A DNA stretch of 64,000 nt from an uncultured Gammaproteobacteria bacterium (GCA_964625535.1 CAZVEX010000005.1:3477-67476); one strand, 5' to 3'; positions 3,523 to 52,709 are shown, numbered from the stretch's first letter. Made by a program: numbers and translations. Notes: generated by a model not told the origin, from the sequence alone.

Positions 3523-5747
3523 ATCAGTACGGTTTGATTCATCTCATCTAAGGCATTTTTTAAGCCCTGCTCGCCAAAAAGGGCAACTGCTTTTTGTATT
3601 CCGCCCTGTTCCCGAAGCGGGGGTTTGGTAAAATCTTCTGCCGTAACCTCTATATCTCCTGCCACAAATCTATTTTTAAGTTGTGATAAAAGCATTATTT
3701 GTTCAATGCTAAAATCTTTTTGTCTAAGCCATGAATCAAAATTTTTATTTACTCTTTCTTTTTTGGTGGGAAAAGTATATCTGCCTAAAGCTGCTTTAAT
3801 AAAATCAGCCAGTGATCCTGAAGGCTGATTGTATGCTTCTTTTAAGTTGTCTTCATTAAAGTAATCTTTAGGGCTATTTAATTTATCTGCTAATTTTTCT
3901 AACTCTTCTTGCTCCAGCTCTTTATCAGATAGGATTTTTTGAACCGTTTGATCCTCCTCCATTTTTTCTATAGTTTTCTCAAACTTTTGTGTATAGTTTT
4001 GGCGGTCTACAGCCATTCCTTCCGGGCCAATATAAATCATCTGCCTGCTTTGCATTTCATCAGACAGCTCATGTTCTTTAACTACTATAAATTCTTTTTT
4101 GTGCTTTGCTTCTTCCTCCTCAATTTTTTGAGCAAGTTCTCTTGGAAGAGCTTTTTCTCCGGGGACGGCATTTTCCAGCATCGGATCATTAAAACGCTCT
4201 GCATTTCCCACAAAATCATAAATTAAAAATGACTCCTTATTTATGCTTTTGTCTTTTCTTGAACCTCTGCCCCGCATTTGCTGGTATAAAACTACCGAAG
4301 CGGTCGGGCGCATCATTACTAAATTCTCAATGCTTGGCGCGTCAATACCGGTATCAAGCATGCCAACTGAAATTAAACAAACCGGAAATTGCTGTTTTTT
4401 AAAATCTTTTAGAATTTGTCCCGGGTTTGGAGTATCGGAAGTTATAACCTGGGCAAAGTTCCCCCGATACTCTGAAAAAACTTCATCAAAAAACCTTTTG
4501 AGCTGGGCGGCATGATTCTTGGTAACTGCAAAAAGAAGAGTTTTTCTAAGATGATCGCCTTTGCGTTGTTTTTCCATTTCTGCAAACTCCTGCACCATCA
4601 GCTTATTTCTGGATTCAATGGTAATAGTTCGCTCAAGCTCCGAGGGTTTATAGTCTACGCCATCGTAATGCACACCTTCTACCGTAATCCTGGATTTTGC
4701 TAGGTAAATTTGATAACTAGCTAGCCAGCCATCTTTTATAGCCTCTACTATACCATAGGCAAATGTAGGTTCCCCACTTTTGGTAGCATGATTCCAGCAT
4801 TTGTAAAATTCATAAGTGTTTCTGACTAATCTTTTTTCCTTCTCATTAACAAACTCATAGTGACCTAAATTTGGAGTGGCAGTCATGCCTATTTGCAGAG
4901 CGTCAAAGTGATTTAGTAAATCTCGGTAAACATTATAAATTGAGCGGTGACACTCATCAGTCACCACCAGATCAAAATGACCCGGACCAAAACGCTCAAG
5001 TTGGGAAGCAATAGTAGGCAGGGTTCCGATAACAATTTGGCCTAATTCTTTTGGCTTGCCCCCATACCAAACCTTTGAGGGTGTATCTTTTAAATACTCT
5101 GCAAAAACATCCTTTGCTTGTTCGGCAAGTTGCTTGCGGTCAACCAGAAACAAAACTCTTTGAATTAAACCTGCCTCAAATAAGCGCTTCATAGTCATGG
5201 CTATGGTAAGTGTTTTACCGGTGCCGGTTGCCATTTCAATTAAAATTCTTCTCTTGCCATTTTCTATAGCCTTATCTACAGCTTCCATGGCTTCATTTTG
5301 ATAAGGTCTAACTGTTATTTCTTCATTTAGGTAATTAAATTTAGACGGAAATTGTATTTGACTTAGAGGCTTGGTATTTTTTTGAAGGGTATTTCTTCTT
5401 TGCAAATCTTCTCTTGAGTAAAATGAATCTACAAGTCTGGCCGCGTCGTTTTTATAATCCCAAAAATATATAATTTCTCCATTGGAGAGAAAAATATAAG
5501 GAGCACTAATAGACTCTGCGTATTCTTTTGCTTGCTGTTGAGCTAAATTGGGTTCTATTGAAAATCTTTTTGCTTCAATAACTGCCAAAGGGCGGCCTTG
5601 ACTGTCTTTTAATAAATAGTCTGCTCTACCATCGGCGGCTGCTTCTTCTGTTGAGACTTGAGTTTTATCTTCAATATCCCAACCGGCTTCACGAAGAAGC
5701 CTATCTATAACTATACGGGCGTCTGTCTCTGGTCTTTTATCACTCAT
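3519..5747 (-). CDS. hsdR: Type I restriction enzyme R subunit (HsdR-like, short form, EcoEI-R-type C-terminus)
   Basis: 742 aa. N-terminal 'ETDARIVIDRLLREAGW' HsdR_N nuclease-fold motif, helicase motif I 'MATGTGKT', motif II 'DECHRS', motif VI 'QMRGRGSR', EcoEI_R_C-like tail. Confidence 0.8.
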   Translation of the reverse strand: MSDKRPETDARIVIDRLLREAGWDIEDKTQVSTEEAAADGRADYLLKDSQGRPLAVIEAKRFSIEPNLAQQQAKEYAESISAPYIFLSNGEIIYFWDYKNDAARLVDSFYSREDLQRRNTLQKNTKPLSQIQFPSKFNYLNEEITVRPYQNEAMEAVDKAIENGKRRILIEMATGTGKTLTIAMTMKRLFEAGLIQRVLFLVDRKQLAEQAKDVFAEYLKDTPSKVWYGGKPKELGQIVIGTLPTIASQLERFGPGHFDLVVTDECHRSIYNVYRDLLNHFDALQIGMTATPNLGHYEFVNEKEKRLVRNTYEFYKCWNHATKSGEPTFAYGIVEAIKDGWLASYQIYLAKSRITVEGVHYDGVDYKPSELERTITIESRNKLMVQEFAEMEKQRKGDHLRKTLLFAVTKNHAAQLKRFFDEVFSEYRGNFAQVITSDTPNPGQILKDFKKQQFPVCLISVGMLDTGIDAPSIENLVMMRPTASVVLYQQMRGRGSRKDKSINKESFLIYDFVGNAERFNDPMLENAVPGEKALPRELAQKIEEEEAKHKKEFIVVKEHELSDEMQSRQMIYIGPEGMAVDRQNYTQKFEKTIEKMEEDQTVQKILSDKELEQEELEKLADKLNSPKDYFNEDNLKEAYNQPSGSLADFIKAALGRYTFPTKKERVNKNFDSWLRQKDFSIEQIMLLSQLKNRFVAGDIEVTAEDFTKPPLREQGGIQKAVALFGEQGLKNALDEMNQTVLI

Positions 5748-7183: not shown

Positions 7184-8182
7184 ATGATAATATTGGGAAT
7201 TGAAACTACCTGTGACGAGACAGGGGCTGCTGTCTTGCAGCAAAAAAATGACAGGATACAAATTTTATCTAATGTGGTGGCATCTTCTGCCTCTTTGCAA
7301 GCCAAATATGGCGGGATAATTCCCGAGCAGGCAGCCAGGGAACAAATAAAAAGTATTATTCCAGTTATTCAAGAAGCAATTGAAAATTGTAAATTAAAAA
7401 TTGAAAATTTAGACGCTATTAGCGTCTCTCATGGTCCGGGATTGATTGGATCGCTCCTGGTGGGAGTGGAAACAGCCAAAACTTTGGCCTTAGTATGGAA
7501 TAAACCCCTTATACCGGTTAATCATTTAATCGGACATTTTTATGCAAATTGGATTGGTCGATCTTCGCCCAAATTCCCCTGTATTGGTCTTCTGGTTTCC
7601 GGTGGCCACACTGATTTAGTTTTGTTCCAAAATCATGGTAAATATAAATATTTAGGAGGAACCCGGGATGATGCGGCAGGGGAATGTTTTGACAAATGCG
7701 CCCGGCTTTTGCGTTTGCCTTACCCGGGTGGGCCGGAAATTAGCAAATTAGCTGAAAAAGGATCTGATATTTATAAATTACCAAGGCCAATGATGGATTC
7801 GGGGGACTTTGATTTTTCCTTTTCCGGATTAAAAACTGCAGTAGCTAATCTCATTCAGAATTCAGAATTCAGAATTCAGAATTTGGCTGCGAGTATTGAA
7901 GCTGCTATTGTTGATGTTTTAGTTGCAAAAACTATCCTGGCTGGCCAAAAATATCAAGTTGAACAAATTATGGTGGCAGGCGGCGTTGCAGCAAATCAGA
8001 AACTAGTTTGTGAATTGAAATTGAAAATTGAAAATTTAAAATTGAAAATTACATTGCATGTGCCGTCTGCACATTTATGTACCGACAATGCTGCCATGAT
8101 TGCTGCCGCGGCATTTTTTATAGAACCAATTTCTGACCCTTTGAAACTCCAAGCCGATCCCAGTCTTGCGCTCAAGTATTAA
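7184..8182 (+). CDS. tsaD: tRNA N6-adenosine threonylcarbamoyltransferase TsaD (Kae1/Gcp)
   Basis: N-terminus 'MIILGIETTCDETGAAVL', 'SGG' and 'HxxGH' motifs. Contains in-frame short tandem repeats (separate features). Confidence 0.9.
   Translation: MIILGIETTCDETGAAVLQQKNDRIQILSNVVASSASLQAKYGGIIPEQAAREQIKSIIPVIQEAIENCKLKIENLDAISVSHGPGLIGSLLVGVETAKTLALVWNKPLIPVNHLIGHFYANWIGRSSPKFPCIGLLVSGGHTDLVLFQNHGKYKYLGGTRDDAAGECFDKCARLLRLPYPGGPEISKLAEKGSDIYKLPRPMMDSGDFDFSFSGLKTAVANLIQNSEFRIQNLAASIEAAIVDVLVAKTILAGQKYQVEQIMVAGGVAANQKLVCELKLKIENLKLKITLHVPSAHLCTDNAAMIAAAAFFIEPISDPLKLQADPSLALKY
7855..7877. repeat. Tandem heptamer repeat (AGAATTC/CAGAATT x3.3) inside tsaD
   Basis: 'tcagaattcagaattcagaattt'. Same repeat family as at 38480-38520. 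Confidence 0.8.
8010..8050. repeat. AT-rich short repeat 'AATTGAAAATT' tandem copies inside tsaD
   Basis: 'aattgaaattgaaaattgaaaatttaaaattgaaaatt'. Related copies at 7381-7410, 40958-40985 and 41394-41440. Confidence 0.75.
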
Positions 8183-16956: not shown

Positions 16957-18102
16957 TCATTTTAACTTTAAACGGGCTAAAGATAAACCCCAAACTAAAA
17001 ATAACAATCTGTAACCTTGAGGCAGGGTTAAAAAGTAATGGTCAAATAAACCCAGGAATAGTATGGCGTATAGGGTATAGCGTATAGAGGGTAATTTCAA
17101 AAAATAGCCAATAAGACCAATAAATCCAATTAGACCTATTATCCCGGTCTCCGAGAGCTCAAGAAGAAAAATATTGTGCACGGGCTGTAAAAATCTGCTG
17201 GGGCCAGAAACTAAATCCTGCTGGGCCGAAATAAAATTATTTAAGCCCACCCCAAAAAGAGGCGCGCTTTTAAACATTTCCCAGGCTTCAATGCTTAAAC
17301 CTTCTCTTCGCAAGATCGTTAAACTATCATAACTAAAAAGAGCCTGGAATCTGGTATAAAGAATGGGGGAAAGCAAAAGCGCTGATACCAACAAAATAAG
17401 TTGCCATTTTTTAGGTAAAGTCAGAAGCCCCAAGATAAATCCTCCCAAAATTGCCACTCTGGACATAGTTAAAACAATTATTATTCCACCAATTATCAGT
17501 AAAATTCTTGAGGAAAGCAGTGATAGAACAACTATCATGTATCCTGCCAAAACATTGGGATGAGGAAAGGTTGCGTAAGGCCGTAAAAATTGCCAGCCGA
17601 AGAAATCAAACTTGGCAATACCCGGCGTTGAAATAGAAAAAGTTCTTTCCCCTAAAATCCAAAGCCCCAGTGTCCCTCCTTTTATAAATTGTAAAATAGC
17701 CAAGCCTGCCTCAAATAAAATCCCTACAGAAAGAGGCAAAAAAATTCTATTTAAATTTTCCCATCTTTGGGATGCAAGGTAGACTCCCAAAAAACCAGCT
17801 ATTACATATTGTTCCAGCCTGACTAAACCCGCTCCGATATTTTCCGCTCCTAATAAAGATAAAGCTTGGGTTATTAAAAAAATTAGCAGCAGATTTAAGG
17901 CTAATTTATTAACTTTTGGTTTTGTTATAACCCAGGTTATTAAAAGTCCTATTACCAATATGTCCCAAAAATATAAAGTGGGGGAAAGATAGTCTATTTT
18001 TAGGGAATAAATATAGGAAAATTGTGGCCAAAAATGGCGACCAAGTTGAGTGGGTAAAAAGAGCAGGGTTAGAAAAAGAAGAATGCTCTCAATCCTCTTC
18101 AC
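16957..18102 (-). CDS. O-antigen ligase/polymerase-like membrane protein (Wzy_C family)
   Basis: 381 aa, polytopic. 'PVHNIFLLELSETGIIGLIGFIGL' Wzy_C-like motif with a conserved His. Confidence 0.65.
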   Translation of the reverse strand: MKRIESILLFLTLLFLPTQLGRHFWPQFSYIYSLKIDYLSPTLYFWDILVIGLLITWVITKPKVNKLALNLLLIFLITQALSLLGAENIGAGLVRLEQYVIAGFLGVYLASQRWENLNRIFLPLSVGILFEAGLAILQFIKGGTLGLWILGERTFSISTPGIAKFDFFGWQFLRPYATFPHPNVLAGYMIVVLSLLSSRILLIIGGIIIVLTMSRVAILGGFILGLLTLPKKWQLILLVSALLLSPILYTRFQALFSYDSLTILRREGLSIEAWEMFKSAPLFGVGLNNFISAQQDLVSGPSRFLQPVHNIFLLELSETGIIGLIGFIGLIGYFLKLPSIRYTLYAILFLGLFDHYFLTLPQGYRLLFLVWGLSLARLKLK

Positions 18103-22920: not shown

Positions 22921-23100
22921 GTTATCCACCAACGCTGGGTCTTTTCCACAAGTTATCCACAAATTATAAACAGCTAATTAACATAAAAAGTTTTAAGTTT
23001 TAAGTTTTAAGTTTTAAGTTATCCACATATCCACCATACATATAAATATGACTATTATTATTAAAAAGATAGTGTATAATTCTAAAACAAAAGTGGAAAA
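22921..23100. promoter_or_regulatory. Putative oriC: DnaA-box cluster plus AT-rich unwinding element
   Basis: Perfect TTATCCACA at 22953-22961 and 23019-23027, near-perfect boxes at 22922-22930, 22942-22950 and 23028-23036, (ttttaag)x4 at 22990-23018, then an AT-rich tract. Confidence 0.65.
22990..23018. repeat. Tandem heptamer (TTTTAAG)x4 within putative oriC
   Basis: Direct reading of the sequence. Confidence 0.9.
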
Positions 23101-27184: not shown

Positions 27185-28963
27185 CTAAACGTTCCCTCTT
27201 GCCAGTATTTCTTGCGGATTAGAGGTAATGAGCTGATGTTCCTCCGGGGAGGCCACCACCCGCATGGCTACATGGGTGTTGCCAGCAAAAAACAAGCCTT
27301 GACCGATCCCTTCAGACAGCAACAATCTTTGTTCCCCCTCGGACAAATTAAAAACTTGGGCCAGAAGGTCAATGGAAACAGGAGCCTGTTTTAAAAGTAC
27401 CTGAATTGACGAGTTGGAAATTATTTCCTTACCCCGATCTCCACCCAGAAAATCTTCCACATCTTGAGTTATGGTGGTTAAACCCAGATAATATTTTCTG
27501 GCCCGCTTGGCCATGTCCACCAGAAAATTGGCAGAGTCTTCATTTCTCATTAAATACCAGGCTTCATCCACGATCATGATTCTTTTCTTGAGCTTGCTCC
27601 TTACCTTAGTCCAGACATAATCCAGGATCATATGCATGGCTAAAGGCCGCAGCTGATCGGCCAGGTCCCTGACGGAAAAGACCGTGAAGGAGTTAGCAAT
27701 GTCAATGTTGGATTGGGCGGAAAAAATGCCGGCTAAAGAGCCTTTAATAAACCTTTCCAGACGGACCGACAGTTCCATGGCCGCAGGTTCTTCCATGCCA
27801 ACCAGCACTTTATACAAATCTTCCATTAAGGGAGGCCCGCCTGTGCCGGGTTGGGTTTTGGGATCATCGGTAATGCCTTTTAAGGCGTAAGTTTGTTTCA
27901 AAGCCCGATCCAGCAGGGCAGCCTCTCCCGCGGAAAGTTGCCCCAAAACCAGTTTTAAAAAGGCAGTCAAAGATAAAATTTTCCTGCCCAGCTGGTTTTC
28001 GCCGGTAGTGTCTTGGGACAAGTCAAAGGGGTTGATTTTAACCGGAGAAGAAGAGGAAAAATTAATGAATTCTCCTCCCACCGCTTCGCAGAGAGGTAAA
28101 TATTCCTGTTCCGGGTCAATCACAATGATTTCCGTGCCAAACATCAAAGATCGCAAAGCTTCTAATTTTACAAAATAACTTTTTCCCGCGCCGGCTTTGG
28201 CAAAAACCACCGAATTGGCATTTTCCAGGGAGAAACGGTCAAACAGAATTAAAGAGTCATTGTGCTCATTGATGCCGTACATCACTCCCTCATTGGCAGT
28301 TAGTTCGGAGGAAGCAAAGGGAAAAGTGGTGGCCAGGGAAGTGGTGTCCATATTGTGAGTAAAATTTAAAAGGTCTGCGCCCTGGGGCAAGGTTGATTTA
28401 AAGCCGTCTTCCATTTGCAAAGTGGTGGGTTGGGTGGTAATGGAGAGCGAAGCCAGAGTGGATTCTATTAGTCTGGAGGTGTTATGCAGTTCGTCAAGAG
28501 AGGAGGCAGGTATTGTCACATACAAGGCAAAATCAAAAAACCTCTCCGCGCCCCTGACCAGCTGATCCTGCAGAGAGCGGGCATCTTCCAAAGCCACCTC
28601 CACTGCCGGGTCAATGGCTTTACCTCGCTCAAGATCGGTTTGAATGGTGGCTTCCATTTCGGCAATTTTTCTTTTCAACTCATCCAGCACTCCGGATGAA
28701 GGCGAGGGATAGATGAACATGGAAATAAGCAGGGAATGGTCAAAAGAAATTAGCGGTTCCAGCCAATTGGATTCCACAAACCTGGGATAATTTGAGACAA
28801 AATATGTGCGAAAATAGCGGTTATTGATTCTTAAATTATTAAAGTCAACCTCTATTTCAGCCGGAGACACCACATCCTCCAGAGTTAACTGGGGAGGAAT
28901 TTTTTCTTCCTGAACTTTTGTATTTTTCAATAAGCTGGGTAACTTCATAATTTTAAATTTCAA
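27185..28963 (-). CDS. virB4: VirB4/TraC-family type IV secretion ATPase, central and C-terminal part
   Basis: 592 aa. Walker A 'AKAGAGKS', Walker B 'IMIVDEAW' (VirB4-type DEAW), middle-region 'RYFRTYFVSNYPRFV' motif. Track start is TTG; ATG at 28948 is plausible. Confidence 0.8.
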   Translation of the reverse strand: MKFKIMKLPSLLKNTKVQEEKIPPQLTLEDVVSPAEIEVDFNNLRINNRYFRTYFVSNYPRFVESNWLEPLISFDHSLLISMFIYPSPSSGVLDELKRKIAEMEATIQTDLERGKAIDPAVEVALEDARSLQDQLVRGAERFFDFALYVTIPASSLDELHNTSRLIESTLASLSITTQPTTLQMEDGFKSTLPQGADLLNFTHNMDTTSLATTFPFASSELTANEGVMYGINEHNDSLILFDRFSLENANSVVFAKAGAGKSYFVKLEALRSLMFGTEIIVIDPEQEYLPLCEAVGGEFINFSSSSPVKINPFDLSQDTTGENQLGRKILSLTAFLKLVLGQLSAGEAALLDRALKQTYALKGITDDPKTQPGTGGPPLMEDLYKVLVGMEEPAAMELSVRLERFIKGSLAGIFSAQSNIDIANSFTVFSVRDLADQLRPLAMHMILDYVWTKVRSKLKKRIMIVDEAWYLMRNEDSANFLVDMAKRARKYYLGLTTITQDVEDFLGGDRGKEIISNSSIQVLLKQAPVSIDLLAQVFNLSEGEQRLLLSEGIGQGLFFAGNTHVAMRVVASPEEHQLITSNPQEILARGNV

Positions 28964-29688
28964 ATTGCATCCTCCAGTTCCTCCACCACAAAAGGGTGGG
29001 TTTTGACAATCTGGCTACTTAACGGAGGAGGATTATTAATGGCAGGTTTTTCTTGGACAGCAGGCGGCGGGGTAGGAGTGGACACAATCGGTTTAGGAGC
29101 ATTGAGTTTGACCGGTTGCGGCAGCGGAGTAAATTCTTCTCCACTACCGTTGTAAGCATTGTAAAAAAGCTCCAGTAGTTCCTTGCTTTGAAGCTGGGTG
29201 GCTTTTAGGCCAACACGGTTTAACTGTCTGATAACCTGATCGCGCCTTGGCAGAAGCACTGTTTTGACTTTTTGGTATAAGGCTTCTCTGGTAGGGATAA
29301 TCCCCAGCTCCAGCTTGGACAGAGGAATGACCACGTAGAATTTCTTATCCAACACCTCGTTTTCCTTAATGGTGGTTTGGATAAACTGGCGGTACGATGT
29401 CATCATAGCCGAAAGCAGTGGGTTGGTCTGGGCTTTTTGGGCATGATCCAGCAGGTTCAGATATGAGCTGATATTTAGTCTTTCCGACTGGATCACAATC
29501 TGAATGGCAAAGGACAGCGAATTTAACATTTGGGCAAAGCTGGCAATAATCCCTATTTGTTCTCTTTCCGATAACAGGCCAAAATTAACTGCGGAAACCT
29601 GCATTACCAGGGCGCCGCCGCCGTCTTTTAAAAGCAGTATATTGTCTTTAATATCGCTAATTAACAAATGTTCCTGGGTTGTGCTCAT
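28960..29688 (-). CDS. VirB4 N-terminal domain encoded as a separate ORF (split VirB4)
   Basis: 242 aa. 'LLLKDGGGALVMQVSAVNFGLLSEREQIGIIASFAQMLNSL..IQIVIQS' matches the VirB4 N-terminal consensus. 242 + 592 aa equals a full-length VirB4. The stop and downstream start are in different frames. Confidence 0.55.
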   Translation of the reverse strand: MSTTQEHLLISDIKDNILLLKDGGGALVMQVSAVNFGLLSEREQIGIIASFAQMLNSLSFAIQIVIQSERLNISSYLNLLDHAQKAQTNPLLSAMMTSYRQFIQTTIKENEVLDKKFYVVIPLSKLELGIIPTREALYQKVKTVLLPRRDQVIRQLNRVGLKATQLQSKELLELFYNAYNGSGEEFTPLPQPVKLNAPKPIVSTPTPPPAVQEKPAINNPPPLSSQIVKTHPFVVEELEDAI

Positions 29689-36677: not shown

Positions 36678-38522
36678 TTATCCTCCCTGTTTATACGGCT
36701 TAATTTTTCCGCTGCTAGCATCCGAATAAATTTTGAATTTCTCTCTTATACTAGGTTGGTATTGAAGTGGGTTATATGTCCAGCCTGTTGGTTGGCCTGT
36801 TTTCGGATCAAACCCCGTTGGCATGTATGCAGGTGTTCCAAATAACCCTCTGGCTCTGGCAAGATTGCCGCTGGCAGCGCCAACTCCCTGCTGGGCCTGT
36901 TGGCCGTATCCTCTGCCGGCGGCAATCCCCCCTGAAATTTCCTGGCCGATCAGTTGTCCAGCTACTCCCACTCTGCCAATAGTTCTGGCAAGAATATCTG
37001 GAATAGCTGGGGTGGCAACTAATGCTCCAAAAGCCAGGAGCAGCTTGATGAAATCCAATCCCATTCCGCCAAAAAGAGGAAAGGTAAAAGTTCCTGTAAT
37101 CTCGACAGGGCCTTGAGCCCCCACTGTAGAAACTAAACCATTACTGACCGTAGCTCCACCTGAATCAGATACTTTAAATGGACCATACGGACCATTTGCA
37201 GAACCCAGCATAAAAGCCACAAAATAAAATACAGCTATCACAGCGGGGAATGCCAAAATATTAGCCAGCATATTTAATATCCAGCTGGTGGCAATCCCCT
37301 GTCTGCCTGGAAGGGCTGCTGCCAAAAATTGAAACGGGGCAGTGATTGTTAAAAATATGATGGTTAAATAAACGTTGATCAAGCGCATTAACAGTTTAAA
37401 CATGGCGTATAACAATATGGCTGTAACAACCAAAGCAAAAAGCGCACCTACTATTGCTGTGGGTCCTATAGGTCCTGTAGCTGTATTAAGAACGGCTAAG
37501 CCTTGTAGGGCTGCAATTATACCTTCACCAAATTTAGGTATAAGTTTGAGCCACTCAAAAGCCTGACCGGTTATTTGTGCACTAACTAAGGCTGCCAGTG
37601 TTACCAAAAGGCGCTGTGCATCATTATGAATATCATCCCAGAAAGAATTTAATACCTCAGTTACCTTTTCTTTATTAGCTACTGTGGCAAATTTACTAAA
37701 GATACTGATAAGATTTGGTTTGCGACCGGTGTTAGGATCCGGGGAATCTAAATCCTGAACTAAGTTTTGAGGGGTACCTCTGACAGTAGAAAAATAAGCC
37801 CCAACTATATTAGTACCAATAAAGGCTGTATCAGAAATTAAAGAGGCCAAGAAATAGGAAAAAGTGATTAAGATCAGGCCAATTACCAGGCCGGGTAAAG
37901 CGGCCTGGGCAGTAATGACTGTTTGGGGGTTGATTCTGTTTCTAAACATTACCATGAGTCCTATCACCACAAAAATAATGATCATAAATACATAAGAGAT
38001 ATTTCTGGATACCTGCCACAAAGTTAAAATCGGGTTTAACACCTGGGCTCCTGACCCGATCACCTGAGCTTTAGCCTCTTTGATAATTCCCAACCCCTGT
38101 CCCACCGATGCCAAATAATCAACCGTCCTAACAGGCGGGTTGGCATATAAAACGCCGATCAAAGAAGTGGTGGCTCCCAGTGCCCCTCCTCCCAGATTAA
38201 CCCGGGATAAAACCGGCACCGACTGTATGGCCCCTTGGGCATCTTTGGTAACCTGATAACTTAAACAGGGCTGGCCAATCACCGATGAACCAACAGACAG
38301 ACAGGAGAATGTATGGAATAAATTATGGACCAAAAGATCGGTGTAAATGGGGGAAGTAGGAGAAACGGTAGTTGGTAGGTTGTAGGTGGAGGCTTGCCCT
38401 GACGAAGGAAGGGTTTGGGCAAAAGCGGTAGGTACAAGCAGTAAGAATAAGGCAGTAAGAATAAAGCTTAAAAAAATCTTAATTCTGAATTCTAAATTCT
38501 GAATTCTAAAGTCTAAAGTCAT
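36678..38522 (-). CDS. VirB6/TrbL-like polytopic membrane protein with N-terminal signal peptide, periplasmic domain and Gly/Gln-rich C-terminal tail
   Basis: 614 aa, signal peptide, ~170-aa exported domain, at least 6 TM helices, C-terminal 'GQEISGGIAAGRGYGQQAQQGVGAASGN' tail as in TrbL. Follows the pilin array. Confidence 0.6.
   Translation of the reverse strand: MTLDFRIQNLEFRIKIFLSFILTALFLLLVPTAFAQTLPSSGQASTYNLPTTVSPTSPIYTDLLVHNLFHTFSCLSVGSSVIGQPCLSYQVTKDAQGAIQSVPVLSRVNLGGGALGATTSLIGVLYANPPVRTVDYLASVGQGLGIIKEAKAQVIGSGAQVLNPILTLWQVSRNISYVFMIIIFVVIGLMVMFRNRINPQTVITAQAALPGLVIGLILITFSYFLASLISDTAFIGTNIVGAYFSTVRGTPQNLVQDLDSPDPNTGRKPNLISIFSKFATVANKEKVTEVLNSFWDDIHNDAQRLLVTLAALVSAQITGQAFEWLKLIPKFGEGIIAALQGLAVLNTATGPIGPTAIVGALFALVVTAILLYAMFKLLMRLINVYLTIIFLTITAPFQFLAAALPGRQGIATSWILNMLANILAFPAVIAVFYFVAFMLGSANGPYGPFKVSDSGGATVSNGLVSTVGAQGPVEITGTFTFPLFGGMGLDFIKLLLAFGALVATPAIPDILARTIGRVGVAGQLIGQEISGGIAAGRGYGQQAQQGVGAASGNLARARGLFGTPAYMPTGFDPKTGQPTGWTYNPLQYQPSIREKFKIYSDASSGKIKPYKQGG
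38480..38520. repeat. Tandem heptamer repeat (GAATTCT/AAATTCT/AAAGTCT x~6) at the 5' end of the VirB6-like gene
   Basis: 'taattctgaattctaaattctgaattctaaagtctaaagtc' encodes N-terminal 'MTLDFRIQNLEFRI'. Same AGAATTC family as tsaD 7855-7877. Confidence 0.8.
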
Positions 38523-38571: not shown

Positions 38572-38898
38572 TTATGGGTTGGGTTGGCACCATGGCAAGC
38601 CCGCTCCTCCGCAAAGCGCTCTGATATCAAAAAATGTTACTTTTACTCCGGTCACCGCTTCAATAAGCTGCAGAATTATCCAGGCTATGGCCAAAAAAAG
38701 TATCCCCAATAAAGCCCAGGTGACAGTTAAATGGGCAGCTTGTATAGCCTTGGGTTCTCCGCCTGAAGTTAAATATTTGATTCCGGCCCAGGTAAGCACG
38801 ACCAAAGAGGCAATAAAGCCCAATCCTACTATGACGGAAATGCCTTTGGAAAAAACCTCTTCAATTTGTTGCAAACCGGCAGGTGAAGGATTGAGCAT
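38572..38898 (-). CDS. TrbC/VirB2-family pilin-like protein (paralog 1)
   Basis: 108 aa, two hydrophobic helices around 'WAGIKYLTSGGEPKAIQAAH' (family motif W..Y..GGxxE/K...A). Confidence 0.55.
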   Translation of the reverse strand: MLNPSPAGLQQIEEVFSKGISVIVGLGFIASLVVLTWAGIKYLTSGGEPKAIQAAHLTVTWALLGILFLAIAWIILQLIEAVTGVKVTFFDIRALCGGAGLPWCQPNP

Positions 38899-38934: not shown

Positions 38935-39261
38935 TTATGAGGGGCTGGGGTTGGGGGTGGGGATAACAATGTTGGTTATGTTCAATCCTGTGAATTGTCC
39001 GGCCACTCTGGCCAGGGCAAAAGCCACAGCCAAAACAGCCAAGCCAATCAAGGCATTGATAATTCTATTTCTGGCCTTGCTGACGGCCTCTTTGTCTCCG
39101 CCGGAAGTAATCCATTCAAACGCTCCCCAGATTAGCATTACCAGAACTACCAGCAGTCCCAGACTAAAAGCCAGCAATAGAAAATTGCTGATAAACTCGC
39201 CCAAACTGGCATAACCTTTACCTTGGGGAGGGGTAATAGTAATGGTAGGAGCCGGACTCAT
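38935..39261 (-). CDS. TrbC/VirB2-family pilin-like protein (paralog 2)
   Basis: 108 aa, 'LIWGAFEWITSGGDKEAVSKARNRIINALIGLAVL'. Compare RP4 TrbC '[28 protein letters not shown]'. Confidence 0.6.
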   Translation of the reverse strand: MSPAPTITITPPQGKGYASLGEFISNFLLLAFSLGLLVVLVMLIWGAFEWITSGGDKEAVSKARNRIINALIGLAVLAVAFALARVAGQFTGLNITNIVIPTPNPSPS

Positions 39262-39300: not shown

Positions 39301-39837
39301 TCACTTTTGACCTTCAAAAAACTTAAAGCCGGTAAATTGTCCCAAAACCTGGATAACTGCAAAGGTAATAGCCAAAAGCAAAATTCCCACCACAGCATTA
39401 ATGATTTTTTTTCTGGCCGAATCCAGTTTTTCCTTGTCCCCCTCCGAGGTCATCCAGTCCCATCCTCCCCAAAGCAGCATGAAAATTAACACTACCCCGG
39501 CAGCTGCATAAATTAAACCTACCAGATTGGACAAAAACCTGCTGATCCCCCCGGCTCCTGTGGGATCAGGGGAGGTAAAGGGTAACAGTTCCGGAGGAGG
39601 ATTGATAGTGCCGAAGGACTTACCAACTTCTGATTTTTCACAAGTACCTCGACTAGGATCAGCCGTGAGGGGTTTACAAACCAACCCTGCTTCACAATGC
39701 CCATTGGGATCTTTTATAAAACAGAAACCCGGTTCTTTTATATGATGAGCCAATACTACGTTAGCGTTGATCCCGAAAAACAGACAAATAAAGATCAAAA
39801 GAAAAAGTTTTTTAATCATACAAGAATATATTATCAT
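39301..39837 (-). CDS. Pilin-like protein with N-terminal signal peptide and Cys-rich extracellular extension fused to TrbC/VirB2 core (paralog 3)
   Basis: 178 aa, signal peptide, six Cys in 'CFIKDPNGHCEAGLVCKPLTADPSRGTCEK', then 'LWGGWDWMTSEGDKEKLDSARKKIINAVVGILLL' pilin core. Confidence 0.6.
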   Translation of the reverse strand: MIIYSCMIKKLFLLIFICLFFGINANVVLAHHIKEPGFCFIKDPNGHCEAGLVCKPLTADPSRGTCEKSEVGKSFGTINPPPELLPFTSPDPTGAGGISRFLSNLVGLIYAAAGVVLIFMLLWGGWDWMTSEGDKEKLDSARKKIINAVVGILLLAITFAVIQVLGQFTGFKFFEGQK

Positions 39838-39907
39838 TAATTTACAAAGCGCAACAACTAGTTAATGTAATTCTATTATAGGTTTGATAAATAGATAAGA
39901 TTATGGT

Positions 39908-40615
39908 ATGATAGATAAAATTATGAAAAGAGAAAGCGAGCTTAAATCAAGGGCAATACGTATTGGAGGTACTGTTTTAGTAACTACAGTTATGGGTTTA
40001 GCATTAGAGCAAGGTGTAAAAACGGTTAATGCGGAAACTCCTACGGCTACAGCCACTCCCACCAGAACGCCTACTCCTACAGGTACGCCTACCCCGGATA
40101 TAGAAATAGTTAATAAACAAGCGACTATTACAGCTTTAAACAAACAGCTTGAAAGGGCAAGACAACTAGCAGATCTGCGGGCAACCGAAGCTGCTGTTCG
40201 CAGGGAAATAGATAAAGTTATGGGTACGCCTCCGGCTACTTCTACCCCTACTGCTCAAGAGCTAGAAAGACAGAGGATTGAGCAAGCTGCTATAAAAGAG
40301 ATTGCAGATAGGTGGGGGACTGCCACAGCCCAGGCAGAATTAAGACCAGCTACACCTACTCCCTTTCCTCTTCCCCCAAGACCGGCCGGGCCCAAACCCA
40401 AGGAAGAACATGATCCGACAGGCGGTTTGGATATAGGCGGGTTAGTCCCTTGGGTGGGAGGAGTAGCCGCGCTTGTTACAGCCGTGGTAGGTTGGTTAAA
40501 CAGGGGCAGAATTCTGGGTTTATTTAGAAGAGGCGGTGGAGACGCTGATGTAGATGTAACTCCTGATGATGATCCTTTGAGACCAGTCCCTCCTAGACCG
40601 CCAACAACTACCTGA
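39908..40615 (+). CDS. Thr/Pro-rich hypothetical protein with N- and C-terminal TM helices (only plus-strand ORF inside the pilin array)
   Basis: 235-aa ORF, 'TPTATATPTRTPTPTGTPTP' repeats, central coiled coil. The mirror minus ORF 39901-40143 is low-complexity. Coding status uncertain. Confidence 0.3.
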   Translation: MIDKIMKRESELKSRAIRIGGTVLVTTVMGLALEQGVKTVNAETPTATATPTRTPTPTGTPTPDIEIVNKQATITALNKQLERARQLADLRATEAAVRREIDKVMGTPPATSTPTAQELERQRIEQAAIKEIADRWGTATAQAELRPATPTPFPLPPRPAGPKPKEEHDPTGGLDIGGLVPWVGGVAALVTAVVGWLNRGRILGLFRRGGGDADVDVTPDDDPLRPVPPRPPTTT

Positions 40616-40985
40616 TGATTTGGAATCCGGTTATCCCAAAAAGACTGGATAGTAAGAATTGTAACACCAAAAAGGCAGACATTAAAATAAAAAAGCCGAT
40701 AATGGCATGAGTTATCATTTGCCTGGCTCCCTCCATTTCTTCTTTATTGCCTCCTGCCCGCAAATACCGGAAAGCCCCAAAAAGAAAATACATGATGACC
40801 ATTACTGCTGTTATCGAAAAGGCCGGAGTGACCAGCTTTGATGTGGCCTCGCCCAAAGAAGTAATATTGCCAAAGCCGAATTTTTCACCAATGGGAATGG
40901 GAGATTGGGCAAGAACGGGAATAACCATTAACAGGTAACTGGTGACGAGAATATAAATTTTTAATTTTAAATTTTTAATTTTCAT
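40608..40985 (-). CDS. TrbC/VirB2-family pilin-like protein with signal peptide (paralog 4)
   Basis: 125 aa, 'FGAFRYLRAGGNKEEMEGARQMITHAIIGFFIL'. The 5' end 'MKIKNLKLKI' is encoded by an AAAATT(A/G)AAAATTT repeat. Confidence 0.6.
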   Translation of the reverse strand: MKIKNLKLKIYILVTSYLLMVIPVLAQSPIPIGEKFGFGNITSLGEATSKLVTPAFSITAVMVIMYFLFGAFRYLRAGGNKEEMEGARQMITHAIIGFFILMSAFLVLQFLLSSLFGITGFQIIR

Positions 40986-41033
40986 TCAAATTTTAATATT
41001 TCAATTTTAAATGTTTAAATAACAATAAGTAAA
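40960..41033. repeat. AT-rich degenerate tandem repeats (aatttt/ttcaaatttt units) flanking the Avd-like gene, downstream side
   Basis: 'ttttaattttaaatttttaattttcattcaaattttaatatttcaattttaaatgtttaaat'. Confidence 0.7.
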
Positions 41034-41393
41034 TTACTTAGTACTAAATGCTATTTTAGAAAAAATCAAGGTCAATTCTTGTGCTTCTTGCCATAATTTT
41101 CTGCACGCCTCTCTCGTCTCATTAATTGCTTTTGCAAGCAATCTTAGCCAATATTTTGTTTCTTTTGCTTCTTTTTTGCAAATAAAAATTTTGTTTTTGA
41201 AATCTTTTTTACTGCTTGCTCCGTTTGCTTCACAATAGTTAGCGCCTATGCTTGTTCCGGCTCTTAGGAGTTGATCTACTATAGGTATAGTAACTACATT
41301 TTTAGGAACATTTTTACAAAGTTCAATTATACTCTCTGCAAATGTTGCAGTTCTTTCTTCCAGATCATATTTTTTGTTTAATATTTTCATCAT
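41034..41393 (-). CDS. Four-helix-bundle protein of the 23S rRNA intervening-sequence / DGR Avd-like family
   Basis: 119 aa. 'DLEERTATFAESIIELCKNVPK...QLLRAGTSIGANYCEANGASSKKDFKNKIFICKKEAKETKYWLRLL' matches the IVS-protein/Avd family consensus. Inserted between pilin paralogs. Confidence 0.75.
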   Translation of the reverse strand: MMKILNKKYDLEERTATFAESIIELCKNVPKNVVTIPIVDQLLRAGTSIGANYCEANGASSKKDFKNKIFICKKEAKETKYWLRLLAKAINETREACRKLWQEAQELTLIFSKIAFSTK

Positions 41394-41440
41394 TTAAATT
41401 TGATTTCAAATTTCGAATTGTAAATTTCAAATTTCTAGAA
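41394..41440. repeat. AT-rich repeats (tttcaaattt units) flanking the Avd-like gene, upstream side
   Basis: 'ttaaatttgatttcaaatttcgaattgtaaatttcaaatttctag'. Confidence 0.7.
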
Positions 41441-41758
41441 TGGTACTCCTCCTCTGCCTGGAGTAAAGATTTCCCCGGCATATTTGGCCACAAAATAGGC
41501 TATCAAGGTGACCAACAGCCCAATCAAGGCCCATCTGATTCTGGCCCTGGCCTTGGCCAAACCTTCTTTATTCCCTCCGGCCATAATATACTGCCAGGCT
41601 CCCCATACCAGCCAGTAAAAGGCCATAAAAACCACCAGATAAAAGGCAATGTTTAAAATAGCTGATAATAAAGAACCCAGATCGGTGAACTTTTCTCCCA
41701 CAGGAGAAGGTTGAGGAATGTTTCCAAAACCAGGTAGTTGAATAGCTAATTTCATAGT
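41435..41758 (-). CDS. TrbC/VirB2-family pilin-like protein (paralog 5)
   Basis: 'LVWGAWQYIMAGGNKEGLAKARARIRWALIGLLVTL'. Start moved to the internal Met 'MKLAIQLPG' to remove the 65-nt overlap of the track ORF (41435-41833). Confidence 0.55.
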   Translation of the reverse strand, partial: TMKLAIQLPGFGNIPQPSPVGEKFTDLGSLLSAILNIAFYLVVFMAFYWLVWGAWQYIMAGGNKEGLAKARARIRWALIGLLVTLIAYFVAKYAGEIFTPGRGGVPF

Positions 41759-41768
41759 GACTCTAGTT

Positions 41769-42890
41769 TCATCGTCCGAATCCCGGTATTCCCAAAATAT
41801 CAAAGCCAATGATTTGCAAAAGCAGTACTGCAAATATTACAAACAACAGTCCAATTATGGCGGAAGTTAATCTCTCTCTTCCTGCCTGCAGGGTTTCCGG
41901 ATTGCCTGCAGAGGTGAGCATCTGAAATGCTCCGAGTAGCATCATCAAAAAGGCCAAACCTCCCCCTATCCCCAGAGCAAACTTCAATACATCCGCAATC
42001 AAATCCGCAGGCTCCGTATGAATACACCCAATAGCAGTTTTAATGGAAGGCTTAGATGGATCACAACTCAAACTTACTGCAGAAGTGCAAATTACACCTT
42101 GATCGCCGCATTTTTTTGGTTGTGTAATAATACCAGGATCTATAGAGCCTGACGGGATAGGTAATGGCGAAGGAGCGTTGACATCTAATGTTATCAAACC
42201 GCCACAAGAGTTATATTTACTACTCGTATCTGTACTAGCTACTTTGATTTCTTTTATTTCTCCAGGATTTCCATCTATCGGAATATCAACGAATTCGCCG
42301 AGTCCATGTTCATCGGTAGTTATTTTTTTTTCAACCAGATTCTTTCCTCCTACTAAAATAAGATAGGTTTGATTTTCTGATCCTAAAAATCTGATAGGTA
42401 TTAAAGCATTAGGTTGAACTTTTGTGGGGAGAGAAGGGTTTATAAGACACTGGCCTCCCAGAATTCCAACTTGGAATTTGATATCTGTGCAATATGGACT
42501 AAAATCTTTATCGCTACTGGTTTTACTTATTTCAATCTTTCCATTTTTTTCTCCTCTCTCAAACAATACCCCATTTTCGGACGTTTTAGGTATCTTAATT
42601 TGAAAGCTAGTTTGGTCAGAGTTAATTTGAATATATTCTGATCCCCAATCCACACCAAACATATCCGTTCTATACCTAATGTAGGGTCCATTGCCCTGAA
42701 TATATTGAGCCCCTCCGGAAGTTAAGTCGAATGTCAAGAGCATAGGGTCTGAATTTACAAAAAAAGGTTTAGATGTAAGAGTAATTCCTGTATTAAGGTT
42801 AGAACAGGGTTTAACATCAACGGCATAAACGAAAGGCGGTAAAAATAATAAATGTAAAAGTAACAATATAGCTAGGATTATTTTGAACAT
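41769..42890 (-). CDS. Secreted protein with ~290-aa extracellular N-terminal domain fused to a C-terminal TrbC/VirB2 pilin core (paralog 6; first gene of the array)
   Basis: 373 aa, signal peptide 'MFKIILAILLLLHLLFLPPFVYA', C-terminal 'LLGAFQMLTSAGNPETLQAGRERLTSAIIGLLFVIFAVLLL'. Confidence 0.55.
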   Translation of the reverse strand: MFKIILAILLLLHLLFLPPFVYAVDVKPCSNLNTGITLTSKPFFVNSDPMLLTFDLTSGGAQYIQGNGPYIRYRTDMFGVDWGSEYIQINSDQTSFQIKIPKTSENGVLFERGEKNGKIEISKTSSDKDFSPYCTDIKFQVGILGGQCLINPSLPTKVQPNALIPIRFLGSENQTYLILVGGKNLVEKKITTDEHGLGEFVDIPIDGNPGEIKEIKVASTDTSSKYNSCGGLITLDVNAPSPLPIPSGSIDPGIITQPKKCGDQGVICTSAVSLSCDPSKPSIKTAIGCIHTEPADLIADVLKFALGIGGGLAFLMMLLGAFQMLTSAGNPETLQAGRERLTSAIIGLLFVIFAVLLLQIIGFDILGIPGFGR

Positions 42891-42967
42891 TACTTTTAGC
42901 TTAGCATAAAGAAAAGCTTGTAGCTAGTAGCTGGTAGTTAGTAGCTGGCGATGGTAAAATTAAGAAC

Positions 42968-44689
42968 ATGTTTGTCAAGAAGTTTATAGCAGTATTTTTA
43001 ATTGCTCTATCCTTACTACTTACTGCTTACTACTTACTACCAACGGTTCGGGCCGATGAAATTGAGGACTTGCAAAGACAGATTGATGAATTAAACAAGG
43101 CCCGGGAGCTTTCCGTTAAAGCTACCACCCCCCTGGAAGGTCAGCTTGATTCATTAAAGCGCCAGCTGGCCCAAATCCAAGTTCAGCTCGAAAATTTATC
43201 TTTAAACATCCAAAACAAACAAAGGCAGTTGGAAATCAGGGAAGAAAAATTAGCTTTGCAGCAGGCCCTTCTTGATAAAAGAGTCCGCTCCTATTATATC
43301 CGCTCCTACCTGGCAGACCCTTTACTGGTGATCCTTTCTTCCCTTCAATCGGGGGATCTTTTTAGGGAGCTGTCCTTCCGCCAGTCTGTGGCCAGGGAGG
43401 ATCGCCGGATCATTACCGCCGTCACTAGTGAAATGTTGGACCTGTTGACCCAAAAAGACAAACTGGAAAAAGACAAGTCTGTCATAGCCGGACTTCAGGT
43501 CGAGGTTGACAAAAATGCCAAATTTTTGGGAGGGGAAATCACCACAGCCAAAAAATACCAGGCCGAACTGTCAAGTAAAATTGCGAAGTTATCTGCCCGC
43601 CAGCAGGCCATTATTGCCCAGCGTCAGGCCAGTTTGAATCTTCCCACCTCTTTGGGGGCAGGGCCGCTTTTTTGTACGGATGATCGAAAACTGGATCCGG
43701 GCTTTTCTCCGGCTTTTGCTTTTTTCACTTTTGGCATTCCCCATCGCGTTGGCATGAACCAGTACGGAGCATACGGCCGGGCCAATGCCGGAGCAAATCA
43801 TGAGGATATTTTGCGCTCGTACTTTCAGGATTTTTCCTTTGAACAGCGGCCAAACATCAACATATCGGTTCAAGGATACGGTTCTATGCCTTTGGAAACT
43901 TATCTTTTGGGAATTTACGAGATGCCGGATTCTTTTCCGACAGAGGCCTTAAAAGCTCAAGCCATTGCTGCCCGATCTTATGCCCTGGCTTACACCAACA
44001 ATGGGGCAGGGGAAATTTGCACCACCCAACAGTGTCAGGTTTACAAAGGCGGCAATAAAGGAGGCAACTGGGAGCGGGCCGTTAATGAAACCAATGGGAA
44101 AACAATGATTTCAGGCGGATCAGTGGTTAAAGCCTGGTATTCGTCAACAGACGGAGGTTATACTTTTTCATCCGCAGATGTATGGGGATCGGGCACTTCT
44201 TTTACCAAAAGATCAAGGGATACAAACGGGGATATAGGTAGTTTCAGCGATCTTTTCTCAAAAGCTTATGACCGGGATTCGCCCTGTTTTTATGCGGCGC
44301 AGGGAGTAAGAAGCCAGTATGCCAAATCCGCTTGGCTAAAATTCGAAGAAGTAGCAGACATTGCTAATGTCATCATGCTGGTGAAGCAAGATTCCGGGGT
44401 TTCCCCACATATTTATCAGACCGATAAACCCAACCCTGAAGGTAATGAGACTTGGGATGGATCAAGAGTGAAACAGGAGCTGAAAAGCAGAGGAGGAAAC
44501 CCTTTTAACAGTGTTTCCGGAGTTTCCGTATCTGCGGATTTTGGATCGGGCATGACTACTTCGGTGACTGTTTCCGGGGACAGAGGATCAGAAACCTTTA
44601 ATGGGAGCGAATTTAAAAACTTCTTTAATCTGCGGGCCCCGGCCAATATCCAGATTGTGGGACCACTGTTTAATGTGGAGACAAAGTAG
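42968..44689 (+). CDS. SpoIID/LytB-domain peptidoglycan-active protein with N-terminal signal/TM and long coiled-coil region
   Basis: 573 aa. Coiled coil aa 30-210. SpoIID-like 'EALKAQAIAARSYALAYT...CTTQQCQVYKG'. Confidence 0.7.
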   Translation: MFVKKFIAVFLIALSLLLTAYYLLPTVRADEIEDLQRQIDELNKARELSVKATTPLEGQLDSLKRQLAQIQVQLENLSLNIQNKQRQLEIREEKLALQQALLDKRVRSYYIRSYLADPLLVILSSLQSGDLFRELSFRQSVAREDRRIITAVTSEMLDLLTQKDKLEKDKSVIAGLQVEVDKNAKFLGGEITTAKKYQAELSSKIAKLSARQQAIIAQRQASLNLPTSLGAGPLFCTDDRKLDPGFSPAFAFFTFGIPHRVGMNQYGAYGRANAGANHEDILRSYFQDFSFEQRPNINISVQGYGSMPLETYLLGIYEMPDSFPTEALKAQAIAARSYALAYTNNGAGEICTTQQCQVYKGGNKGGNWERAVNETNGKTMISGGSVVKAWYSSTDGGYTFSSADVWGSGTSFTKRSRDTNGDIGSFSDLFSKAYDRDSPCFYAAQGVRSQYAKSAWLKFEEVADIANVIMLVKQDSGVSPHIYQTDKPNPEGNETWDGSRVKQELKSRGGNPFNSVSGVSVSADFGSGMTTSVTVSGDRGSETFNGSEFKNFFNLRAPANIQIVGPLFNVETK

Positions 44690-52459: not shown

Positions 52460-52532
52460 TGCGCCCGTAGTTCAATGGACAGAACGCATGGTTGCGGTCC
52501 ATGTGGTTGGGGGTTCGATTCCCTCCGGGCGC
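52460..52532 (+). tRNA. tRNA-Arg (anticodon GCG; unusual isoacceptor)
   Basis: Acceptor GCGCCCG/CGGGCGC, D-arm GUUC/GAAC, anticodon arm CAUGG-UUGCGGU-CCAUG, T-arm GGGGG-UUCGAUU-CCCUC. Confidence 0.6.
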
Positions 52533-52538
52533 GCTCGA

Positions 52539-52629: not shown

Positions 52630-52703
52630 AGCCCTCGTAGTTCAATGGACAGAACTTCTGGTTCCGGTCCAGACGGTTGGAGGTTCGACTCCTCTCGAGG
52701 GCG
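52630..52703 (+). tRNA. tRNA-Arg (anticodon CCG)
   Basis: Acceptor GCCCUCG/CGAGGGC, anticodon arm UCUGG-UUCCGGU-CCAGA, T-arm GGAGG-UUCGACU-CCUCU. Confidence 0.75.
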
Positions 52704-52709
52704 CTAACT

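Follow-up and report, generated by a model that had tools for sequence, protein, structure and literature searches.

A heptamer-flanked four-helix-bundle gene cassette in a bacterial pilin gene array and its likeness to 23S rRNA intervening sequences

Small proteins of the S23p or 'four helix bundle' family were discovered in the intervening sequences (IVSs) of rRNA genes and, the distant relative Avd aside, we know of no function found for them since. In Coxiella burnetii, the IVS is a 428-nt element in helix 45 of the 23S rRNA, which carries an S23p open reading frame (ORF) on the sense strand and, directly 5' of the ATG, three to four tandem heptamers (GACAGAT) whose number varies by strain (PMC4990558). 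It forms an inverted-repeat stem that has been shown experimentally to be cut by RNase III at the first repeat, its distribution is sporadic with horizontal transfer suspected, and its ORF is reportedly in decay and probably not translated (PMC4990558). IVS ORFs in Leptospira, Xanthomonas and Brucella are also cited in that paper, as are earlier proposals that IVSs are the remnants of a transposition event or that the ORF is a mobility component (PMC4990558). In this study, we describe a cassette with an S23p-family gene at positions 41034-41393 (minus strand) of a 64,000-nt stretch of DNA deposited as uncultured Gammaproteobacteria bacterium (GCA_964625535.1, CAZVEX010000005.1:3477-67476), the whole of which is called the window below. 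The gene stands in an array of pilin genes and is bounded on both sides by arrays of approximately 7-nt repeats. Taken as a whole, the reading of this locus as an IVS-type cassette, comprising its insertion, its separation from diversity-generating retroelements (DGRs) and the mechanism proposed below, is considered probable. No description of an operon-borne, heptamer-flanked PF05635 cassette was found in the literature that could be searched.

The four-helix-bundle gene and its heptamer flanks

The gene at 41034-41393 encodes a basic protein of 119 aa (isoelectric point 9.4), hereafter the 4HB protein, which matched the Pfam family PF05635, '23S rRNA-intervening sequence protein' (E 1.1e-18, 67.9 bits; cut-off 33.8), and the NCBIfam family TIGR02436, 'four helix bundle protein' (E 6.4e-24, 84.3 bits; cut-off 24). 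Both scores lie above the curated cut-offs, in agreement with the family named in a first-pass annotation of this DNA. The family is very large, with more than 8000 close matches for this protein. The G+C content is 0.31 in the ORF, 0.15 in the 5' flank and 0.08 in the 3' flank, against 0.42 for the window and 42-45% for the adjoining pilin genes. No second 4HB paralogue was found in the 64-kb window, and an Rfam search of 40500-41900 gave no match. Since an identical protein carries the database label 'four helix bundle protein [Ca. Daviesbacteria]' and the most similar neighbourhoods of the adjacent SpoIID-like gene come from Daviesbacteria metagenome-assembled genomes, these sequence matches assign the host lineage of the cassette to Candidatus Daviesbacteria (Microgenomates, candidate phyla radiation (CPR)).

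The 5' flank of the gene (41394-41434, minus strand) reaches from the stop codon of the pilin gene pilE to the 4HB ATG and consists of approximately five to six degenerate heptamers (GAAATTT GAAATTT ACAATTC GAAATTT GAAATCA AATTTAA). The 3' flank (40955-41033, minus strand, with the boundary uncertain by a few nucleotides) is made of AT-rich repeats of about 7 nt with inverted similarity to the 5' flank. Tandem Repeats Finder reported period-7 arrays at 40956-40982 and 41403-41435, and its arrays on the 3' side ran across 40954-41020. When end profiles (nhmmer) were built from other copies of the cassette, with the window copy excluded, the 5'-end profile matched the window at 41441-41373 (E 7e-7) and the 3'-end profile at 41029-40940 (E 2e-10). 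Each profile also matched the opposite flank in reverse orientation (5'-end profile on the 3' flank, E 4e-6; 3'-end profile on the 5' flank, E 4e-7), and because of this cross-match the cassette ends are regarded as terminal inverted repeats made of heptamers. The inverted homology of the ends at the DNA level reached a z score of 5.5.

The first-pass annotation had described these flanks as degenerate direct repeats of 'AAATTTGAA'. The repeats are real, as seen from their 7-nt periodicity and their homology to other copies, but the literal 9-mer is not over-represented in the window (3 found versus 4.2 expected). Direct symmetry is present, but inverted symmetry is present as well, and the repeats are conserved cassette termini and not of the target-site type. 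The left repeat block also had to be redrawn, as it extends to approximately 40955 and holds the ATG of the next pilin gene, pilD (40983-40985).

Close homologues (61-82% identity) were found at 80 further loci in a metagenome scan, in many different settings, and the same two flanks were present around almost every copy. The flanks are conserved with the gene in approximately 90 homologous copies whose contexts are unrelated. Across 74 distinct copies that were aligned, conservation starts abruptly about 50-55 nt 5' of the ATG (consensus TAATTTTnAATTTnAAATTTTAAATTTnAAATcAATTTT) and stops about 70 nt 3' of the stop codon (consensus ATTnAAAATTgATTnAAAATTnAAAATTnnAAATTnAAAATTa). The lag-7 self-match of the two flanks was 0.45 and 0.42, compared with 0.27 in control DNA, and the 3' flank of the window copy is homologous to the flanks of loci L083, L084, L085 and L088. 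The neighbours of the CPR copies are diverse and include type IV secretion system (T4SS)-type and type IV pilins, glycosyltransferases, large surface proteins, pth and nadE. Among these mostly CPR copies, 79 of 81 shared their strand with the gene upstream and 75 of 86 with the gene downstream. Gaps to the adjoining genes had medians of 58 and 70 nt, close to the lengths of the conserved flanks, and the cassette is therefore considered to fill the spacer.

Because synonymous saturation made dN/dS over all pairs uninformative, the proportions of nonsynonymous (pN) and synonymous (pS) differences between six copies and the window copy were used. The pS values ranged from 0.66 to 0.87; for the three closest copies (L054, L083 and L087) pS was saturated at 0.74-0.85 while pN was 0.10-0.13, and the flanks were still conserved. 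Saturated pS, low pN and conserved flanks together indicate that protein and flanks are under purifying selection and that the copies are old, so the spread of the cassette does not appear to be a recent transposon burst. We conclude that the repeat arrays form part of the cassette and that selection maintains them along with the protein.

The same architecture was seen in divergent 4HB subfamilies, which have non-palindromic units with a clear inverted copy downstream; examples of the 5' unit and its inverted 3' copy are GATTTAAGAT... (GATTTAA...) with ATCTTAAATC, GAGTTTTAGA with TCTAAAACTC, and GGGTTTAG... with CTATACCC... The inverted match between a copy's own 5' flank and its own 3' flank was significant in 13 of 17 representatives. 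Additionally, ORF-less miniatures were found, in which the 5' heptamer array is joined directly to the 3' array over approximately 100-180 nt, often ending at the ATG of the next gene. Miniatures of about 140 nt lie at 1836-1979 and 3119-3264 of L158, and others at 2680-2785 and 3394-3509 of L087, 4600-4728 of L090, 4867-4985 of L096 and 170-344 of L100. Two Logan contigs that are independent assemblies of the window locus, L001 (SRR12113419_676789) and L002 (SRR12113424_293800), both end 77 nt past the 4HB stop codon, inside the 3' array, and many close 4HB homologues lie on contigs shorter than 2 kb, suggesting that the arrays occur repeatedly in the samples and interrupt assembly.

Occupied and empty junctions in related pilin arrays

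The 4HB gene is surrounded by genes for T4SS pilins of family PF18895 on the same (minus) strand, located at 38572-38898, 38935-39261, 39301-39837, 40608-40985, 41435-41755 and 41769-42890. Its upstream neighbour is pilE (41435-41755, minus strand; 106 aa, MKLAIQ...), which was assigned by its PF18895 match, by the gene call in L001 and L002 and by a tblastn core alignment, and whose TAG stop codon (41435-41437) abuts the 5' array of the cassette. The downstream neighbour is pilD (40608-40985, minus strand; 125 aa; PF18895 E 1.8e-10).

For comparison, 80 related neighbourhoods were retrieved with the adjacent SpoIID-like gene as anchor, and 4HB genes in relatives were sought by jackhmmer on six-frame ORFs. 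The gene order mem614-pilA-pilB-pilC-pilD-pilE-pilF ... SpoIID was conserved among the related neighbourhoods. In the 13 related Microgenomates arrays that have both pilE and pilD, pilD directly follows pilE, and of the arrays compared, that of the window alone has a gene between the two. Other relatives have 4HB genes of several divergent subfamilies; almost all of these occupy the pilE|pilF junction, and every one is on the strand of the pilins. Since empty pilE|pilF junctions have a spacer of 0-15 nt or an overlap and carry no arrays, the heptamer arrays arrive with the gene. These comparisons show that the cassette entered the near-zero-length pilE|pilD spacer in the Daviesbacteria lineage, in the orientation of the operon.

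The comparison of relatives' pilin arrays that the first-pass annotation had proposed supports the small inserted cassette that it had suggested: the gene is absent from this junction in all 13 arrays, several relatives carry a 4HB gene at another junction, and the bounding repeats travel with the gene in its many copies. Its picture of a single interruption in an otherwise homogeneous pilin array was right in that PF18895 genes lie on both sides, and had overlooked a second interruption (39838-40607, described below).

By homology, the limits of the cassette would lie at about 40955-41434, giving a length of approximately 480 bp that fills the pilE-pilD spacer exactly. pilD has its only plausible start codon (ATG, 40983-40985), and with it the first 11 codons (MKIKNLKLKIY), in the 3' flank of the cassette, so that the Lys-rich n-region of the pilD signal peptide falls inside this flank. 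The pilD orthologue of L019, the closest relative (SpoIID 87% identical), has a TTG start that overlaps the pilE stop codon, and an n-region that differs from that of the window pilD.

The preference of 4HB genes for pilin arrays could also be explained if the gene were a resident of a pilus or T4SS-like operon, encoding for instance a cytoplasmic chaperone or regulator of pilin expression, that is inherited vertically with repeated loss and has flanks of ordinary initiation or regulatory sequence. Such an origin would account for the finding that 11 of the 13 4HB genes lay within pilin arrays, which make up 15% of the surveyed DNA (p 6e-8), for their constant location on the pilin strand and for the strong purifying selection on the protein. 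It is nevertheless unlikely, because the position varies among relatives, with pilE|pilD empty as described, and because the same junction holds different 4HB subfamilies in close relatives. Moreover, the same gene with the same flanks stands beside unrelated genes (glycosyltransferases, pth, nadE, type IV pilins) and, in other phyla, inside resistance-nodulation-division (RND), restriction-modification and CRISPR-Cas operons, and the flanks are conserved with the unit and not as host spacers. An inserted cassette remains the reading that we prefer.

Several further features of these arrays were recorded. The empty pilE|pilD site of L019 (4416-4486) contains perfect arrays, (AAAAGTA)x5 and (CTGTACC)x4, in the region coding for the pilD signal peptide; slippage of these heptamers would shift the frame, and phase-variable pilin expression is therefore conceivable. 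At 4842-5195, L019 carries a divergent 4HB gene (TIGR02436, 99.9 bits) at pilE|pilF without recognisable arrays, which apparently replaces the last 29 or so codons of pilF, coding for a hydrophobic C-terminal tail. Pre-existing heptamer arrays may have been the insertion target; the empty pilF|pilE sites, which have none, speak against this, and the L019 pilD|pilE site does have unrelated ones. The identity of the 4HB protein to that of L054 (84%), set against 58% for the L054 SpoIID, was also considered as evidence of horizontal transfer and was dropped, because copies within the subfamily are 73-89% identical whatever their context. The second insert in the window's pilin array (39838-40607, 770 bp, G+C 0.53-0.57) lies between pilC and pilD and contains an ORF at 39908-40615 on the plus strand, opposite to the pilins, that encodes 235 aa rich in Pro and Thr; the insert gave no match to Pfam, and none of the 16 closest related arrays that were tabulated has an equivalent.

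Homologues in other phyla, proposed mechanism and alternatives

A tblastn search of plasmids returned 31 records, mostly cyanobacterial. Eight plasmid loci (L163-L170), from Nostoc, Chondrinema, Monoglobus, Chlorohelix, Planktothrix, Pseudanabaena, Bernardetia and Treponema and thus spanning Cyanobacteriota, Bacteroidota, Chloroflexota, Bacillota and Spirochaetota, were analysed. All eight carry arrays of approximately 7-nt repeats on both sides of the 4HB gene, with lineage-specific units and 3' arrays that are mostly inverted. The lag-7 values were 0.51 and 0.44, whereas other lags gave 0.25-0.33 and the coding DNA nearby 0.25. Seven of the eight genes lie between co-directional genes, mostly obvious operon partners, at the junctions RND adaptor|RND permease, hsdS|hsdR, helicase|methylase (twice), csx2|cas1, fabH|M20 hydrolase and drug/metabolite transporter (DMT)|DUF4832. 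The Monoglobus copy is a 4HB pseudogene that still has its arrays. The Planktothrix flank units (CCCCAAT, CGTAAAT) look like the heptamers of the cyanobacterial short tandemly repeated repetitive (STRR) sequences.

Some of these junctions raise the possibility that the product is a small defence or conflict protein (anti-restriction, anti-CRISPR-like or abortive-infection) travelling as a cassette, a proposal that is compatible with a mobile cassette and adds a benefit for the host. Plasmid homologues stand at hsdS/hsdR, at helicase/N6-methylase (twice), at csx2/cas1 and at cas2/cas1, and '23S rRNA IVP' is among the CRISPR-linked domains of a CRISPR-association screen (PMC10910872). The window 4HB locus, however, matched no PADLOC model, its neighbours and those of most CPR copies are surface-structure and housekeeping genes, and there is no conserved partner gene, so that a defence role, too, appears improbable.

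The mechanism that we propose is that of a compact cassette of approximately 480 bp resembling an ORF-bearing 23S rRNA IVS, in which a PF05635 ORF is bracketed by arrays of about 7-nt repeats and the 3' array is largely an inverted version of the 5' array. The cassette would be transcribed by read-through from the pilin operon, and this is the step in which we have most confidence. Read-through is the simplest assumption because a sigma-70 consensus scan gave a best match of only 9/12, which is uninformative in AT-rich DNA, and no terminator-like site was found within the cassette in the consensus scan. The AT-rich 3' array would now donate the start codon and the signal-peptide n-region of pilD. 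The arrays may further act as cis-acting sites, for which either or both of two roles are candidates. One is a stem like that of an IVS, which RNase III would cut, freeing the ORF RNA and separating the flanking cistrons as in Coxiella; the other is binding by the basic, presumably pentameric 4HB protein. As the heptamer unit co-varies with the protein subfamily, specific recognition would be favoured. Finally, and with least confidence, the cassette may spread or persist as a selfish passenger of operons, of which ORF-less miniatures exist. For the family as a whole, an RNase III stem is plausible, the median z of the flank duplex being -2.8.

A number of observations weigh against this interpretation. 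In the window copy, the flank duplex is weak (-16.3 versus -12.0 kcal/mol for shuffles, z -1.4) and the predicted fold of the whole cassette shows no gain over shuffles (z -1.0); a stem of the IVS type around the ORF, which had been a candidate feature of this copy, was accordingly not established. The AAATTTN unit of the window subfamily is nearly palindromic, which makes part of the inverted-repeat signal automatic. No convincing target-site duplication was found at the junctions when filled and empty sites were compared, and the outer TA is inseparable from the repeat; no transposase was found in the cassette, whose sole ORF is the 4HB gene. The copies in different genomes are anciently diverged, and with one copy in the 64-kb window recent transposition is unsupported. 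The presence/absence pattern among relatives could partly reflect losses. Finally, period-7 arrays occur elsewhere in the genome, even inside tsaD, and not every heptamer array is a cassette end.

Period 7 is the dominant tandem-repeat class reported by Tandem Repeats Finder in the window, and the only perfect arrays with at least three copies are heptamers. Apart from the cassette, period-7 arrays were located at 7378-7409, 7853-7883 and 8013-8050, in a tsaD-like gene, and at 17061-17087, 22988-23020, 28944-28966, 38473-38517, 42915-42946 and 43012-43040. The three tsaD-like arrays are in frame, coding for IENCKLKIENL, QNSEFRIQNL and ELKLKIENLKLKI, and are similar to the ends of the cassette (nhmmer E 7e-6 to 6e-3). 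Among the further arrays are some that code for portions of the N-terminus or signal peptide of the 614-aa membrane protein and of SpoIID. Elsewhere in the window, at 52461-52535 and 52631-52705, a pair of 75-nt direct repeats of tRNA-like sequence, with 79% identity and a distance of 170 nt, probably represents two tRNA genes.

The structure of the protein was compared with known folds. The closest PDB sequence was 2RLD, an uncharacterised Bacteroides protein (E 9e-16; profile E 8e-27), and a profile search of the PDB also reached 2GSC, Xanthomonas XCC0516 (E 1.7e-21). An AlphaFold2 model (mean predicted local distance difference test score, pLDDT, 92.6) has four helices at residues 12-27, 35-57, 62-89 and 91-117, and Foldseek aligned it with template modelling (TM) scores of 0.79-0.86 to 2RLD and about 0.76 to 2GSC, an up-down four-helix-bundle fold like that of these two proteins. 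Both PDB entries contain five chains, and for XCC0516 a homopentamer made of four-helix bundles has been described, as cited in PMC4990558 and PMC10053308; by analogy, the window 4HB protein is presumably pentameric. Cysteines at residues 26, 54, 72 and 97, one in each helix, are invariant among 24 close homologues and are not kept in divergent subfamilies; a metal or redox site at these residues is possible. Cys-lined copper-storage four-helix bundles appear in the Foldseek list at low rank.

The first-pass annotation had connected the gene with Avd, the DGR accessory protein, and had noted that no reverse transcriptase (RT) or template repeat/variable repeat (TR/VR) pair was seen in the window. 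The latter was confirmed, as motif and repeat searches found no RT-like ORF or motif and no TR/VR-like repeat pair in the 64 kb, but the connection itself did not stand, what remained of it being a resemblance at the level of the fold. Foldseek TM scores to Avd (8UB7, a DGR ribonucleoprotein, and 4DWL) were 0.64-0.67 at 13-15% identity, ranking after 2RLD and 2GSC. Sequence and profile searches with the 4HB protein did not reach Avd (4DWL), and the profile-profile comparison (hhalign) with Avd of Bordetella phage BPP-1 (bAvd) gave a probability of 5%. The Avd equivalog NF033474, on which bAvd scores 106.9 bits (cut-off 80), was absent from the protein's NCBIfam matches at E<=0.01. These results show that the window cassette is not a DGR component.

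An orphan Avd, that is, the accessory protein of a DGR located elsewhere in the genome and acting in trans with its RT, was also considered. DGRs are reported to be common in CPR bacteria, the fold does resemble Avd, and the DNA searched amounts to 64 kb of the genome. In addition, PF05635 is the commonest Pfam family near DGR RTs (PMC10053308). Such a role is very unlikely, since beyond the negative searches above the 163 loci carrying 4HB relatives yielded no RT in a crude motif scan, the 4HB protein is closer in both sequence and fold to the non-DGR proteins 2RLD and 2GSC, and bAvd lies between mtd and TR and is not flanked by heptamer arrays. The last alternative, an ordinary small gene that happens to lie between low-complexity AT-rich stretches, could appeal to the literal 9-mer not being over-represented and to the frequency of period-7 arrays in the window, but is to be regarded as already refuted by the homology of both flanks to some 90 other copies with sharp conservation boundaries and by the empty, array-free junctions of relatives.

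Comparison with known elements

As this locus shows, the architecture of IVSs (an ORF, upstream heptamers and inverted ends) is not peculiar to rRNA genes, because protein operons of CPR bacteria are split in the same manner. A much wider proposition, which we offer tentatively and with considerable doubt, is that PF05635 genes with heptamer arrays form one ancient, pan-bacterial class of cassettes invading operons and rRNA genes. The protein would recognise its own subfamily-specific repeats of about 7 nt, in DNA or RNA, and serve as a maintenance or mobility factor, and ORF-less 23S IVSs, the CPR miniatures and part of the STRR and CPR heptamer arrays would be derivatives or footprints. With heptamer arrays flanking the gene at this locus and in the eight homologues from five other phyla, the role of IVS ORFs and the origin of bacterial heptanucleotide arrays come under one testable hypothesis, based on protein-repeat recognition, RNase III processing or both. 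What most deserves following up is the association of PF05635 genes with heptamer arrays, which appears to hold across the family. In practical terms, a cassette of this type can supply a nearby gene with its start codon, can interrupt metagenome assembly and is open to confusion with parts of a DGR.

With Avd (Bbp7 of BPP-1; 4DWL, 8UB7), the window protein shares the four-helix-bundle fold, a small size, a basic character and the superfamily. It differs in that its gene has no adjacent RT, TR or VR and the product no NF033474 match, and bAvd for its part has no heptamer arrays. The free-standing four-helix-bundle proteins BT_0352 (2RLD) and XCC0516 (2GSC) belong to the same HMM family, with 36% identity to 2RLD, and are distinguished from the CPR subfamily by the latter's four invariant cysteines, one per helix, which are not found family-wide.

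Miniature inverted-repeat transposable elements (MITEs) are similar in their terminal inverted repeats, in the existence of ORF-less miniatures of about 140 nt and in the assembly breaks at repeats. Unlike these, the cassette has shown no transposase or target-site duplication, its copies are ancient and not near-identical, and the conserved unit includes a protein gene under purifying selection.

The closest likeness is to the 23S IVS of Coxiella. Both elements measure approximately 430-480 nt and carry a single S23p/PF05635 ORF oriented in the same sense as the host transcript, with tandem heptamers just 5' of the ATG, terminal inverted repeats and no good Shine-Dalgarno sequence, and both are distributed sporadically among relatives, which suggests horizontal spread. 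The window cassette differs in lying in the spacer of a pilin operon and not in helix 25 or 45 of 23S rRNA, and in having AT-rich units (AAATTTN) that are present on both sides. Its ORF is strongly conserved by purifying selection, whereas that of Coxiella is reported to be decaying, and its predicted stem is weak, RNase III cutting being known for Coxiella and only predicted here. By analogy, the cassette would work like an IVS-type element, and we do not classify it as a 23S IVS. The gene belongs to a known family, and the new element, an operon-borne cassette flanked by heptamers, is best called a variant of the IVS-type element.

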